Virus record (IMG/VR): IMGVR_UViG_2541047885_000003
Length of the DNA stretch: 8,493 bases
Source: a virus
Taxonomy: Duplodnaviria; Heunggongvirae; Uroviricota; Caudoviricetes
Strand: one strand, 5' to 3'
The notes beneath the pieces were generated by a model. It did not search any database, had not been told where the DNA came from, and saw nothing but the letters and a program-made list of their open reading frames with translations. How positions within the stretch are numbered: position 1 is the first letter of the stretch; the number at the start of each line of letters is the position of its first letter. Positions 1 through 8,493 of this stretch are shown in pieces. A program made the position numbers and the translations under genes.

Positions 1-287
1 AGTGTTTGTGCGGCAAGTATGCCAAACCAGTCGGCGGCATTCCGCAGCCGCTTCAGGAGAGCCACGTCAGATAATGTTGCAACGTCATGGAGCTGAGCCC
101 ATGCAGTGACTTCACGTAATGACATCCCCCCGGGGCCGTAAGCCAGCCCCAGACGTAGCAGAGTTGCAGCATCACGAATTTCGCGGCGGCGGGTTAGAGC
201 CCCGGCATTACGTGCCGAAGTATCCAGTTCTTCGGGCTTACCAATATGGGCCAGAATTGCTGACCAGTTATCGTGAGAGTAATTCAT
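1..287 (-). CDS. insL: IS186 transposase, N-terminal ~95 codons (5' partial in window; no stop before the window edge)
   Basis: Minus-strand ATG at 285-287; translation MNYSHDNWSAILAHIGKPEELDTSARNAGALTRRREIRDAATLLRLGLAYGPGGMSLREVTAWAQLHDVATLSDVALLKRLRNAADWFGILAAQT matches my recollection of the IS186 InsL N-terminus. Not in the ORF track because it is truncated by the window edge. Confidence 0.8.
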   Translation of the reverse strand, partial: MNYSHDNWSAILAHIGKPEELDTSARNAGALTRRREIRDAATLLRLGLAYGPGGMSLREVTAWAQLHDVATLSDVALLKRLRNAADWFGILAAQT

Positions 288-319
288 CGGCACGTTAAAT
301 CATATCAGGCGTAATACCA

Positions 320-342
320 CAACCCTTAAGTTAGCGCTTATG
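320..342. repeat. IS186 terminal inverted repeat
   Basis: caacccttaagttagcgcttatg at the element boundary; the flank begins GGGAGAATCCC, the kind of G..C-bracketed target IS186 is known to prefer. Confidence 0.65.
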
Positions 343-3080: not shown

Positions 3081-3394
3081 TGGTAAATGGGCGGCTGGTG
3101 GGTGTGGTGGTTGTTGCTTTCCCGTTGCTGAAAAAGAAAACGCCAGACTGTTAGCCGGGTATCAGTTATCTGGAGAAATTTTTAAATACCTCACAATTCA
3201 GGCGGTTGACTGTTGTCTGGTTTGCGGGGAGTTTGTTAAAAGAAACTGGCATGGTGAATCCCCCTGTGCGGAGGGGCAATCAGCAACTGGTGTTTTGTCA
3301 CCGACCCTTATCCTTTCTGTGCGGGTTCAGGTGCTGATACTGAACTCACCGGGAGGCACCCGGCATCATGCAATGGCACATAGCGCCACTCTCC

Positions 3395-3430
3395 AGCCCC
3401 TCTCCGGAGGGGCTGTTTATATTGATTTTG
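3395..3430 (+). terminator. Rho-independent terminator ending a ~330 bp non-coding stretch
   Basis: Perfect 8-bp stem agcccctc / gaggggct with tccg loop, followed by gtttatattgattttg. On the minus strand it is preceded, not followed, by the U-rich tract, so it is + strand specific. Confidence 0.5.
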
Positions 3431-3446: not shown

Positions 3447-3480
3447 TCCTTATGGACTTTGTTGTTTTAGTCCATAAGGA
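3447..3480. terminator. perfect 12-bp inverted repeat (hairpin) between convergent transcription units; possible bidirectional terminator
   Basis: tccttatggact (3447-3458), 10-nt loop ttgttgtttt, agtccataagga (3469-3480); overlaps the last codons of the minus-strand ORF 3450-3785. Confidence 0.4.
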
Positions 3481-3785
3481 CATATTTGCAGAGTGCAACG
3501 GTTATTAAAGCATTCATTCAATACGTTATCTGTATTTGTAGGACATTCCTGGCTGTTTTTGATTAAATTCCAGAATGTTTTATTGAATGGTGCTACGTTG
3601 TAAATGGTTACAGGTAGCACTTTGTTATTGAGCATGATACCTGTGTGAGTCAGTGTAAATATACTTTCAGGAGGTAAGAAAGCATCCGATTGATACCAGA
3701 TTATTAATTTTATTTTACTCCATATGACTGAAAAAGATATTCCGCATGATGGCTGGATAACTGTATCAATCACAATCCACTTCAT
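3450..3785 (-). CDS. hypothetical protein (111 aa), ORFan in AT-rich island, transcribed opposite to the phage late operon
   Basis: Minus-strand ATG 3783-3785 with AAGGA SD about 6 nt upstream; five Cys in the C-terminal third (QECPTN...[16 protein letters not shown]); base composition far more AT-rich than the flanks. No family recognised. Confidence 0.4.
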
Positions 3786-3825
3786 TTAGTTTCCTTGTTT
3801 ATGTCTTGCTGGTGATGTTCTGAAA

Positions 3826-3852
3826 AGTATAAATGATATTTTTGAATGTAAA
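3826..3852 (-). promoter_or_regulatory. candidate sigma70 promoter for the minus-strand ORFan
   Basis: On the minus strand: -35 TTTACA (3847-3852), 15-nt spacer, -10 TATACT (3826-3831), about 40 nt upstream of the start codon. Spacer is short and AT-rich DNA yields chance matches. Confidence 0.25.
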
Positions 3853-4045
3853 CCATAGAGCAGAATTATTTTTCTGATGTTGTTTATTGTTTATTTAAAT
3901 GCAGGGTGGTTTATATCTCGTCTTGTAGTTTATCCATGCATATCTGCTTGATGATGAGGTTTTTATTTAAGGTATGGTTTTGTGTTTTTTCTGTATTACA
4001 TGTCAGGTATTTTAAAGAATTATTTTTCAGATGGTGGAAAGAACC

Positions 4046-6006
4046 ATGGCATTTAAACACTATGATGTTGTCAGGGCGGCATCGCCGTCAGACCTTGCGA
4101 AACGACTGACACAAAAACTGAAGGAGGGGTGGCAGCCATTTGGCAGTCCGGTGGCCATCACGCCTTATACCCTGATGCAGGCCATTGCGGCGGAAGGTGA
4201 TGTCACCACACCTGTGGTGGTGAAGCCGTCGGATGGAGAAGGCGCAGTTATCAGCACCACCAGCAACCCGGAGTATTACTTTGTTGTTGCCCTAGCCGGG
4301 CGGTCAAACGGTATGGCGTATGGTGAAGGGCTTCCGCTGCCGGAGACATATGACCGTCCGGACCCGCGTATTAAACAGCTGGCGCGTCGCAGCACTGTCA
4401 CGCCGGGTGGTGCGTCCTGTAACTACAATGACATTATTCCTGCGGACCACTGCCTGCATGATGTTCAGGATTTGAGTAAGTTTTCACACCCGAAAGCCAG
4501 CGCAGCTCAGTATGGATGCGTGGGGCAGGGATTACATATCGCGAAGAAATTGTTGCCGTTTATTCCGGCGAATGCCGGTATTCTTCTGGTTCCGTGCTGC
4601 CGTGGTGGTTCTGCATTTTTGGCGGGCGATGAAGGTACCTTCAGCGAATCCACCGGCGCAAGCGAGACCTCGGCACGCTGGGGTGTTGATAAGCCACTGT
4701 ACAAGGACCTGCTTACCCGTACTCAGGCCGCACTGAAGGCCAACCCTAAAAATATTCTGCTTGCAGTGGTCTGGATGCAGGGCGAGTTTGATTTGAAACA
4801 GGGTGCATACGCCACTCAGCCGGGGCTGTTTGATTCCATGGTGGAAAAATATCGTTCTGACCTGTCGGAATTCGGAGGTCAGTGTCTCGGGGGCTCTCCG
4901 TCATCAGTTCCCTGGATTTGTGGCGACACGACCTACTACTGGAAGCAGACTTATTCTTCGCAATACGATGCGGTGTATGGTGCATATAAGACGAAATCCG
5001 CAAAAAAATCTTCTTTGTGCCGTTTATGACGGATGAAAACGGGCGAAATGTGGGTACCAACGAGCCGTCAGAAGATCCGGATGTTGCGGATATTGGGTAT
5101 TACGGAGCCGGTGGTCGAACGGACGCCAAAACCTGGACGACGGCCGACCGTAAAACGCATTTTGGATCATGGGCACGTCGTGGGATTATTTCCGACCGTC
5201 TGGCAACGGCGATTCTTGTGCATGCCGGGAGAAACGCTGAATTCATTACCGGAAAACAGCCTGATACGGTGAAGCCCACCGGACCTTCCGGTGAAGGTAC
5301 GGAGAGAGAGCCGGAAGCCCCGGTCAGTAACCGAACCCTGATGAGTCTGCTGGCGTCCGGCGAAGACCTGGCATCACAGGGCTGGCGCTATTATCACAAA
5401 CCGGCGAGCGGAGACAATGTTAACAAAAACATTGCTGAAGCGGTGGTCAGTGATGCGGGGGCTACGGGAGGTAAGGCCCTGCAACTGAATAAACCGGAAA
5501 ACCACATCTGGTTTCTGGAGCATGATGCAGCCGGACAGGGAGTGGAGTTACTGAAGAAGGGGGGACGTGTGAGCGTACGGTTTAAGTTGCCGGGTTCACT
5601 GGTGCCGAATCAGTTTGCCCTGGGCATTTACTGGCAGTTGTCGTCCCTGCCGGAGGGAGTGACGCTGGCAGAGGAAGGCAACGACATGCTGATGTCCTTC
5701 TTCCTGCAGACGGATGCGACGAACCTGAACGCGATGCACCACAAGAAGCCGAATGCGAAGCTGGATACGTTCGGGGTCTTTGATAACGGATGGCACACAC
5801 TGGCTTTTGAGTTTGCCGGAAACAACAGCATTCAGGTGACGCCGGTACTGGATGAGAAACGGGGGACGCCGTTCACACTGGTGAAATCTCCGGCATCAGG
5901 GGCGGCGGACAAACTGCAACTGACAGGCATATCAAAGGCGGCGACATATACGCTGCTGATTGACAGTGTGAAGGTGGAAGTGAACAACGCGGATGCCGCG
6001 GCATGA
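4046..6006 (+). pseudogene. nanS: prophage sialate O-acetylesterase (NanS-p-like: N-terminal DUF1737-like region + SGNH/SASA esterase + C-terminal domain), interrupted by a frameshift at an A7 tract (5002-5008)
   Basis: Frame A 4046-5029 (MAFKHYDVVRAASPSDL..., contains the GRSNG esterase block) and frame B 5017-6006 together total ~655 codons, the size of intact NanS-p as I recall it. The frames overlap at gcAAAAAAAtc; adding one A (or removing two) fuses them into ...SAKKIFFVPFMTDENG.... Confidence 0.65.
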
Positions 6007-6900: not shown

Positions 6901-6904
6901 AGTG

Positions 6905-7393
6905 ATGAATAAAAAATATGAACTGGTTGTTAAGGGGATAAATAATTACGGGGATAAGGTTACTGTTACTGTGAAGCCGGAAGGTGACGGGCAAGCGTCG
7001 CTGTTGTTGCCAGATGTGGCGATTAGTCTTGACCGTACTGAAGGTGCCACGCTGGAGTTTTACGAAGCTGAGGCGAAAAAGCAGGCGAAGCAGTTTTTCA
7101 TGGATGTTGCTGCCGGGTTATGTGAAGGGAACGAACCGTTGCCGGAAAAGCGCCCCATAATTTTAGAGGCGCAGGATGTGTTGATAACCTACAAAGGAAA
7201 GCTACCGGGAAGAATTACTGATGCTCTGAAGATGCCGCCGTCAACACTGCGGTCAGAAAAAGATGATGTTGAATCACGTATTGAAAAACTGGAGCGCTAT
7301 ATCGCTGAATTGAAAAAAAGCGCCCCAACAAAAAATGAGGTGCTTGCAGCAGATGAAATGAAAGAAGCTATTCTTGATCGCGCGGGCATCTAA
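6905..7393 (+). CDS. hypothetical protein (162 aa) inside the lysis cassette; possibly DUF1327/YdfR-like
   Basis: ATG 6905 (GTG 6902 also in frame) with GGAGAG SD overlapping the holin stop; beta-rich N-terminal half and a predicted coiled-coil C-terminus (ESRIEKLERYIAELKK). The family guess is from memory of the essQ-ydfR-rrrQ arrangement in the Qin prophage and is unverified. Confidence 0.55.
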   Translation: MNKKYELVVKGINNYGDKVTVTVKPEGDGQASLLLPDVAISLDRTEGATLEFYEAEAKKQAKQFFMDVAAGLCEGNEPLPEKRPIILEAQDVLITYKGKLPGRITDALKMPPSTLRSEKDDVESRIEKLERYIAELKKSAPTKNEVLAADEMKEAILDRAGI

Positions 7394-7407
7394 GCTGCGC
7401 TTCACGA

Positions 7408-7893
7408 TTGAAAGAGCATCTTCAGCGGCCTGAAGAAAAACGCCGCGATGAGCAGTTTGCTGCGTTTGACGATTATTGTCGGAAAGTGATGAGCAGAAAT
7501 CTCGCAGAGTGTTTCAGTATTCATAATGATAATTTCAGTGAGCTGGAATGGGAGTGTAACCGGCCATCCTTTGTTGTATCCGGTGATGCTGGGAAAATAA
7601 CCATCTCAGAAAATGGGAAAGTAACACCTCCATCGCACCAGCACAGTGAGGAGCTCATTGAATTTGCCATTGATTACCTGAAGAACAATAAAAAGCAGGG
7701 GCTGATGAAGCGCGTTGGCCGTTGCATGGGATATCTTCAGGTAGCCGCTGAGATTGAAGCGCTGGCCAGTGGTGCTGATAAGGATGCAATTGTGCGGGAG
7801 GCTCTTCTTCGTGATTTTAATACTCCACCCTTTAAAAAAGTGCCGGCTTACTGGCTTCATCCGGGGCTGACTTATCTTAAAGTGCGTATTTAG
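7408..7893 (+). CDS. hypothetical protein (161 aa from TTG 7408; 134 aa if ATG 7489 is used)
   Basis: Long open frame filling the gap up to the endolysin; no convincing SD for either start. No family recognised. Confidence 0.45.
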   Translation: MKEHLQRPEEKRRDEQFAAFDDYCRKVMSRNLAECFSIHNDNFSELEWECNRPSFVVSGDAGKITISENGKVTPPSHQHSEELIEFAIDYLKNNKKQGLMKRVGRCMGYLQVAAEIEALASGADKDAIVREALLRDFNTPPFKKVPAYWLHPGLTYLKVRI

Positions 7894-7929: not shown

Positions 7930-8463
7930 ATGAACACCAAAATCAAATACGGCCTGTCGGCTGCCGTTCTGGCGCTGATTGCCGCTGGTGCGCCTGCGCC
8001 TGACATTCTCGACCAGTTTCTGGATGAAAAGGAAGGCAACCACACCACAGCATACCGTGATGGTGCAGGTATCTGGACCATCTGCCGTGGTGCCATCATG
8101 GTGGATGGCAAACCTGTCGTTCCGGGCATGAAGTTGTCGAAGGAAAAATGCGACCAGGTTAACGCCATTGAGCGTGATAAAGCGCTGGCGTGGGTGGAGA
8201 AAAACATCAGAGTGCCGCTGACCGAACCCCAGAAAGCGGGGATCGCGTCATTCTGTCCGTACAACATTGGTCCCGGTAAGTGTTTCCCGTCGACGTTTTA
8301 CAGACGAATTAATGCTGGTGATCGAAAAGGTGCCTGCGAAGCGATTCGCTGGTGGATTAAGGACGGTGGCAGAGACTGCCGTATTCGTTCAAACAACTGT
8401 TACGGTCAGGTATCCCGTCGTGACCAGGAGAGCGCGCTGGCGTGCTGGGGTATCGACAGATAA
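7930..8463 (+). CDS. R: SAR endolysin (T4-lysozyme-type muramidase with N-terminal signal-anchor-release domain)
   Basis: N-terminal Gly/Ala-rich weakly hydrophobic segment GLSAAVLALIAAGA (SAR-like), then E-x8-D-x5-T spacing (EGNHTTAYRDGAGIWT) matching the T4 lysozyme catalytic triad; matches my memory of Stx-phage R proteins. Confidence 0.9.
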   Translation: MNTKIKYGLSAAVLALIAAGAPAPDILDQFLDEKEGNHTTAYRDGAGIWTICRGAIMVDGKPVVPGMKLSKEKCDQVNAIERDKALAWVEKNIRVPLTEPQKAGIASFCPYNIGPGKCFPSTFYRRINAGDRKGACEAIRWWIKDGGRDCRIRSNNCYGQVSRRDQESALACWGIDR

Positions 8464-8493
8464 GCAGAATATTTTGCTGAAAAATGAGGAATG

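Follow-up and report, generated by a model that had tools for sequence, protein, structure and literature searches.

The closest described relatives of the gene considered here are the NanS-p sialate O-acetylesterases of enterohaemorrhagic Escherichia coli (EHEC), which remove O-acetyl groups from Neu5,9Ac2 and from the sialic acids of mucin and whose induction accompanies that of the late genes (PMC8065619; PMC10462455). Alleles from EDL933 and O104:H4 are reported to be active (PMC8065619), and a 2026 preprint reports that the phi24B homologue belongs to the virion and decorates the capsid through its DUF1737 domain. In this study we examine a NanS-p-like gene in a stretch of 8,493 nucleotides (nt) of viral DNA (Caudoviricetes; IMG/VR record IMGVR_UViG_2541047885_000003), referred to as the window, in which the reading frame is interrupted at a run of seven adenines (A7). 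A first-pass annotation of the window had left three options for this interruption: a sequencing or assembly indel, a genuine pseudogenisation, or a slippage-prone tract giving on/off switching of the esterase. Pseudogenisation is strongly favoured over the other two. The gene is very probably a prophage nanS-p-like allele that has truly lost its function and is stably inherited, in other words an ordinary decaying pseudogene.

The window gene shares the DUF1737-SASA-DUF6645 architecture of the EHEC NanS-p proteins (933W z1466, phi24B vb_24B_21/gp84 and the O104:H4 alleles). Its C-terminal domain (residues 464–648) matches 6YP6, 'NanS-p' (E=1.3e-60), and it occupies the same late lambdoid position, between a Q-type antiterminator and the holin/lysozyme cassette; the homologue of the Shiga toxin (Stx) 2a phage lies at the equivalent place, directly after stxAB. 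However, the window protein is only 64% identical in amino acids (aa) to NanS-p of the Stx2a phage, and the window differs from the NanS-p phages in carrying neither stx nor tRNA genes and in having iraM upstream on the opposite strand. Whereas the characterised NanS-p enzymes are reported to be active, the window gene is frameshifted and also bears a substitution, Q86R.

Chromosomal NanS (YjhS; structure 3PT5) is homologous over the esterase domain. Residues 73–391 match 3PT5 (E=1.4e-118), with corresponding GQSN, QGE and His motifs and an alignment that is unbroken across the junction at residue 321. NanS is a single-domain protein (337 residues in the 3PT5 chain) with neither DUF1737 nor the jelly-roll, in contrast to the three domains of the window gene, and at the tract site it reads ...NNILANIIFVDF..., without a poly-A tract.

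The interruption itself also has described counterparts. Homopolymer-slippage pseudogenes, labelled 'frameshifted' by NCBI, have like the window gene a one-base indel at their longest mononucleotide run; there is no essential difference between them and the window gene, although its origins, at least six in number, and a second tract somewhat exceed a one-off event. Contingency loci and −1 frameshift sites (dnaX, IS elements; A_AAA_AAG or A_AAA_AAA) share with the window a variable tract within coding sequence and an A_AAA_AAA in the 0 frame, but the window differs from them in a tract length tied to haplotype, in a tract that is not conserved, in having no stimulator, and in the rarity of the allele that would require frameshifting.

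The break and the residues it separates

The elements of the broken gene, with its two open reading frames (ORFs), are as follows.

4046–6006, plus strand: frameshifted nanS-p-like gene for a sialate O-acetylesterase; 1961 nt long, one fewer than the 1962 nt of intact copies
4046–5029, plus strand: ORF1, 327 aa; native residues 1–321 followed by the out-of-frame tail SSLCRL; covers DUF1737 and the first three quarters of the esterase domain, Ser87 included
4301–4303, plus strand: codon 86, CGG (Arg) replacing CAG (Gln); the Gln of the GQSN block I motif, at the oxyanion hole
4304–4306, plus strand: codon of catalytic Ser87, upstream of the break; AGQSN aligns with AGQSN of 3PT5
4778–4786, plus strand: block III QGE motif, residues 245–247, in ORF1; aligned to 3PT5
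5002–5008, plus strand: A7 homopolymer, site of the −1 deletion; intact alleles have eight adenines (A8), GCA AAA AAA ATC, coding A-K-K-I
5017–6006, plus strand: ORF2, 329 aa; the remainder of the esterase domain, with His372, and the C-terminal jelly-roll (DUF6645)
5026–5029, plus strand: ATGA, in which the ORF1 stop TGA (5027–5029) overlaps an ORF2 ATG (5026–5028)
5158–5160, plus strand: codon of catalytic His372, downstream of the break and in the ORF2 frame; 'drkTHF' aligns with 'lrsSHF' of NanS
5559–5564, plus strand: G6 homopolymer, at wild-type length in the window; a second indel hotspot in other strains

The letters of the window (g5000, c5001, A5002–A5008, t5009, c5010) place the A7 run exactly where the first-pass annotation had put the break, and the ORF list agrees that the two halves lie in different frames, one base out of register, both frames being open over 4990–5029. 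As had also been proposed, one added A repairs the gene: inserted after 5008, it yields a continuous ORF that reads ...YKTKSAKKIFFVPFMTDENG... and matches intact homologues, the exact length being 653 codons where about 655 had been estimated. The start assigned to ORF1 varies, since the ORF list opens it at 4031 (4031–5029, 332 aa) and homologue annotation places it at the ATG equivalent to 4046 (327 aa); gene callers begin ORF2 at the ATG at 5026, and the resulting 4-nt overlap of ORF1 and ORF2 recurs in the gene calls of ten public contigs. The ATGA at 5026–5029 has the form of a classic coupling arrangement, here made by the frameshift, with no Shine-Dalgarno sequence evident upstream.

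Runs of this length are not in themselves unusual, as the window holds three A7 and one T7 in total; the tract stands out beyond chance because homologues of at least 99% identity carry A8 there and an uninterrupted 1962-nt coding sequence (CDS), not because of the A7 itself. Within the esterase gene, the A-tract and the G6 run are the only homopolymers of six or more.

A megablast search of 5,426 complete E. coli genomes recovers the 2.2-kb region in 2,347 of them. Matches of at least 99% identity are annotated 'SASA family carbohydrate esterase' (653 aa), and broken matches 'DUF6645 domain-containing protein, frameshifted'. Pfam assigns DUF1737 (3–50), SASA (83–274) and DUF6645 (503–616) to the intact homologue; in the window the first two fall in ORF1 and the last in ORF2, and the three-domain architecture of DUF1737, SASA and jelly-roll (DUF6645) is complete only after the frame is restored. 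The restored protein differs from WP_000874509.1 by a single amino acid, Q86R. Going by the Pfam, 3PT5 and 6YP6 matches, the gene is identified as a NanS-p-like sialate O-acetylesterase gene, in agreement with its first description.

The break also divides the SASA catalytic apparatus (GQSN, QGE and His), which is not within one polypeptide: Ser87 and the QGE motif are in ORF1, and His372 is in ORF2. We take His372 to be the counterpart of NanS His301, following the alignment to 3PT5 and the Ser19/His301 numbering reportedly given by Rangarajan et al. 2011. Because Ser87 lies in ORF1 while His372 and the carbohydrate-binding domain lie in ORF2, neither product would be expected to act as an esterase, a view that draws on what is described for the SGNH/SASA family (PMC9487903).

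A second defect adjoins the catalytic serine. Gln occupies residue 86 in 78 of 81 aligned homologues (encoded by CAG or CAA), and the GQSN motif reads GRSN in the window. In SASA enzymes the oxyanion hole is formed by the Gln of GQSN, and activity is lost when these residues are replaced (PMC9487903). Since Arg86 (R86) is also found with A8 and an intact frame (9 contigs in one count, 13 contigs read), the simplest reading is that Q86R is older than the frameshift. With the change located at the oxyanion-hole Gln, beside the catalytic Ser, a restored frame may not mean restored activity, and a single added A would probably fall short of restoring full enzyme activity.

Inheritance and recurrence of the shortened tract

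Scaffold KE701649.1 of E. coli UMEA 3139-1 (GCA_000460275.1) matches the whole window, all 8493 nt, at 100% identity. In a collection of 15 billion proteins, the exact 327-aa ORF1 product occurs on 31 contigs, with 2 more called from the 4031 start. Ten of the listed places with this product were examined, covering NCBI, ENA, JGI and Logan assemblies of both isolates and metagenomes. Their contig names follow different conventions (k141_/k127_/k119_, scaffold_, JGI), and they span at least two prophage backbones, some with intact DUF968 and DUF1327 genes and one with a different upstream region. Of the 11 recovered genes combining R86 with A7, ten share one and the same 1961-nt sequence. The length of the tract goes entirely with the flanking haplotype: A861 and T942 are present in 11/11 R86+A7 genes, and both in 0/9 R86+A8 genes (Fisher p=6e-6, for sequences that are related to one another). 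The A7 state has thus been inherited without change across many hosts and on more than one prophage backbone.

A comparison of A-tract length among isolates, which the first-pass annotation had recommended, finds A8 dominant. A 91-nt query around the tract recovers 262 E. coli records from the complete genomes, three of which carry exact A7 (T309.Ta3, Ec15103 and FCI17); their prophage contexts all differ, and the NCBI annotation pipeline marks all three 'frameshifted'. A variable-gap pattern spanning A6–A10 finds A7 in 2/68 IMG/VR viral contigs (one being the same sequence as the window) and in 3/36 metagenome contigs, the others being A8. Counted as fused products, the A8 form accounts for 259/262 E. 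coli records and 99/104 environmental contigs, so that the in-frame state is found in about 97–99% of homologues. A synthetic A9 query had no exact match in the 5,426 genomes (0/262 records), and neither A6 nor A9 was seen in the variable-gap scans of the 68 IMG/VR and 36 metagenome contigs, where only A7 and A8 occur; an A9 product is present only in 10 Logan contigs, where it may be real variation or error. The A7 polymorphism is therefore rare (about 2% overall) and essentially only −1.

Judged from the distance in single-nucleotide polymorphisms (SNPs) to the nearest A8 allele (0–15 SNPs), A8 has shortened to A7 at least six times independently; for each A7 lineage the nearest A8 allele is closer than any other A7 lineage, with one lineage (L076) about as close to both. 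Because A8→A7 arose at least six times, the A-tract is a recurrent mutational hotspot. The G6 run, about 550 nt downstream, varies independently of it. Exact G7 is found in 17/344 records. It occurs in ATCC 25922 and its derivatives (more than 10 separate assemblies, annotated frameshifted) and also in the lineage of T309.Ta3, L073 and L109, which combines A7 with G7; Ec15103 has G5. The 2-kb esterase gene of the complete genome MS10860 (NZ_CP059332.1; L114) shows ten scattered single-base insertions, an apparent G8 among them. These are almost certainly assembly errors and recall that some 'frameshifted' calls in the collection are artefacts; G8 was rejected as a further tract state on account of the scattered insertions.

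Among 98 contigs that were not selected for tract length, five have a −1 change at the A-tract and three a +1 change at the G-tract; a further three single-base deletions, none at a homopolymer, are each present in two contigs. The last group lies at gene positions 983 (L055, L027), 98 (L107, L108) and 163 (L084, L100), in environmental contigs, and would represent further independent routes to pseudogenisation. About one in eight of the 98 copies is broken, more often at the A-tract than at any other single site. Mutation-accumulation work in E. coli (Lee et al. 2012) reportedly found a tendency towards base loss in A:T runs and base gain in G:C runs, which would fit the pattern of the two tracts.

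Alternative readings of the break

The option that the missing A is a sequencing or assembly error, in a strain that is truly A8, has some grounds: homopolymers are classic error sites, MS10860 illustrates ten erroneous-looking insertions in this very gene in a complete genome, and Ec15103 has A7 together with G5. Yet an identical R86+A7 haplotype comes from an isolate genome and from ENA, JGI and Logan assemblies, ten copies being without SNPs over 1961 nt, and A7 goes with two private SNPs, a linkage not expected of random error. Because the identical allele appears in many different assemblies (31 contigs, with ten examined places from different assemblies), including an isolate that matches all 8493 bases, error is essentially excluded, and the missing A is real and inherited. 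A slipped-strand switch, in which the poly-A and poly-G tracts would turn the esterase on and off within a population, is also quite unlikely, despite the independent shortenings of the A-tract, a second tract that varies among G5, G6 and G7, the A9 products in Logan contigs, and the accessory, niche-related function of the gene. Tract length is indeed polymorphic among close relatives, with A7 against A8 in at least six lineages; what fast reversible switching would bring, a length decoupled from haplotype, is not seen, and the A7 allele is unchanged across many samples. OFF alleles make up only about 1–8% of surveys and are nearly all −1, A6 having never been seen. Among the matches listed (10 places each), no sample is shared by A7 and A8. 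Nor is the tract kept in orthologues beyond what the protein needs: the Stx2a-phage NanS-p, 64% identical, reads TEKNIH there and NanS reads LANII, so that the run was rejected as a conserved tract and is better seen as a by-product of codon choice (GCA-AAA-AAA-ATC). In mismatch-repair-proficient E. coli, a contingency tract would usually be longer than eight adenines. G7 has been acquired in one A7 lineage, and the window allele carries Q86R, which resembles decay and not reversible switching. Given the haplotype linkage, the lack of A9 in the surveys of DNA and the absence of the tract from divergent NanS-p, the switching option finds no support. A related proposal, that A8/A7 and G6/G7 form a low-frequency contingency or attenuation device in which A7 goes on making the DUF1737 capsid-decoration module, leaks a little full-length esterase by −1 slippage on A_AAA_AAA and reverts to A8, is similarly held to be very unlikely. 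If it were true, the A7 state could revert to A8 where growth on O-acetylated sialic acids is selected for, and commensal and extraintestinal E. coli would carry on a phage a metabolic or virion-surface gene tuned by slippage.

The A7 allele could alternatively be down-tuned and not dead, still giving full-length protein by −1 ribosomal frameshifting or RNA polymerase slippage, with ORF2 perhaps also arising by reinitiation at the ATGA overlap. The 0 frame of the allele reads GC[A AAA AAA] TCT, which places a perfect A_AAA_AAA at 5002–5008 (codons AAA 5003–5005 and AAA 5006–5008), an X_XXY_YYZ heptamer in the 0 frame at the ORF overlap; a −1 slip, or a single A added by RNA polymerase, yields ...SAKK-IFFVPF..., the same as the wild-type sequence. 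Published frameshifting at A_AA.A_AA.A in E. coli, with no stimulator, exceeds 0.10% against a background of 0.055% (PMC4066793), and C-AAA-AAA in the pDEST17 overexpression context gives 25–60% (PMC1851650). Against this stand the lack of a stimulatory structure, the 82 nt after the tract (5009–5090) having a minimum free energy (−18.8 kcal/mol) no lower than that of shuffled versions (mean −20.8, z=+0.69); the lack of any Shine-Dalgarno-like element on reading 4975–5001; and the rarity of the arrangement, which is not conserved, about 97% of homologues being A8. Rfam has no match at the tract site. A rescued protein would still be R86, and an enzyme split here would be without residues 322–327, which appear to belong to a core strand. 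If there is a leak, it is probably small (below 1%) and incidental, with no selection for it, and we regard recoding as a decidedly improbable account. That ORF1 and ORF2 are separate genes, one a capsid-decoration protein with a partial esterase and the other lectin-like, can scarcely be credited: gene callers do annotate two adjacent CDSs with a 4-nt overlap, and DUF1737 alone is described as decorating the phi24B capsid, but the SGNH/SASA fold of 3PT5 can be aligned over the junction without a break, and the aligned homologues, A8 and 653 aa long, read through the break instead of ending at it.

Several observations weigh against the conclusion that the window gene is a decaying pseudogene. 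Recurrent indels at two tracts of a niche-specific accessory gene would also be expected of a contingency locus. The predicted effect of Q86R is drawn from statements about the family, and an intact R86 allele is present in 13 contigs, with no obvious sign of being purged. The A_AAA_AAA of the A7 allele may leave the gene leaky and not null, and ORF1 retains the DUF1737 capsid-binding domain, such that the loss of function may concern the esterase only. Further, the evidence consists of assemblies, and a minority of A8 revertants within a strain is possible.

Prophage setting and significance

The gene lies in the late region of a lambdoid prophage, after a Q-like gene and before the lysis genes, in the order DUF968, RusA, DUF1133 (Q-like), iraM (opposite strand), esterase, DUF1378, DUF826, holin, DUF1327/YdfR, lysozyme. 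No sigma-70-like promoter match was found on the plus strand in 3786–4046, directly upstream of the gene, and its expression would therefore appear to depend on read-through of the late operon. The anti-adapter gene iraM (PmrD family; 3450–3785, minus strand) lies just upstream of the esterase, where Stx phages have tRNAs and stx. Between the Q-like gene and the esterase, the region 3220–3424 (plus strand) is a full-length Rfam match to the small RNA STnc100 (133.5 bits), ending in a strong terminator-like hairpin (3394–3415); it may be a short leader transcript from the late promoter, analogous to pR'-tR'.

Two neighbouring phage genes are also disrupted. The DUF968 (YdfU-like) gene at 777–1708 carries, relative to ATCC 25922 and FCI17, an out-of-frame deletion of 118 bp (1494–1502) flanked by a short GTGGT direct repeat, which leaves ORFs of 249 and 53 aa. 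This deletion is common to UMEA 3139-1 and the JGI contig Ga0168698_103807, and other carriers of the same A7 allele have an intact 349-aa DUF968 gene. The DUF1327/YdfR-family gene at 6902–7893, a single 296-aa ORF in related contigs, is here split into ORFs of 163 and 161 aa by a 151-nt segment with a stop codon (7300–7450) that replaces about 53 nt; ATCC 25922 and many relatives have the same split state, annotated 'incomplete'.

At the left end, window positions 1–341 do not align with the prophage type of ATCC 25922. A 70-aa transposase fragment (DDE_Tnp_1) lies about 700 nt upstream of the window start in UMEA 3139-1 (L115 1046–1260), which suggests a rearrangement at the left side of the prophage. 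At the right end, the last 93 nt (8401–8493) are repeated with 100% identity 103 nt further on in UMEA 3139-1 (L115 10459–10551), forming a short tandem duplication that follows closely on the lysozyme gene.

The sequence of events that best accommodates these findings may be outlined as follows. The ancestral product would have been a capsid-associated sialate O-acetylesterase with DUF1737, SASA and jelly-roll domains, and the allele would already have borne Q86R when replication slippage took one A from an A8 run that is incidental to the codons GCA-AAA-AAA-ATC, so that the reading frame now stops seven codons past the slippage site. Q86R, the frameshift and the two other disrupted phage genes (DUF968 and DUF1327) would together fit accessory-gene decay in a degenerating lambdoid prophage. 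The data show directly that the lesion exists, that it is real across samples, that it recurs and that it is linked to haplotype; the loss of activity, the effect of Q86R and the mechanism of slippage are the parts that we infer.

The family is known, and equivalent alleles are already marked as frameshifted in public annotation, and the importance of the finding reaches little beyond annotation; what seems worth keeping is the second hotspot, Q86R and the frequency of broken copies. Leak or reversion, if true, would make this a rare case of a slippage-tuned prophage accessory gene in E. coli, but the haplotype data are against it. Read as a decaying pseudogene, the pair of ORFs annotated 'hypothetical' in UMEA 3139-1, and likewise in dozens of metagenome contigs, becomes one frameshifted nanS-p pseudogene. 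ATCC 25922, a widely used reference strain, itself carries the G7 frameshift. Counts of nanS-p copies per strain, which serve as an argument for a growth advantage on mucin sialic acids, overestimate the number of functional copies unless the A-tract, the G-tract and the GQSN motif are checked.

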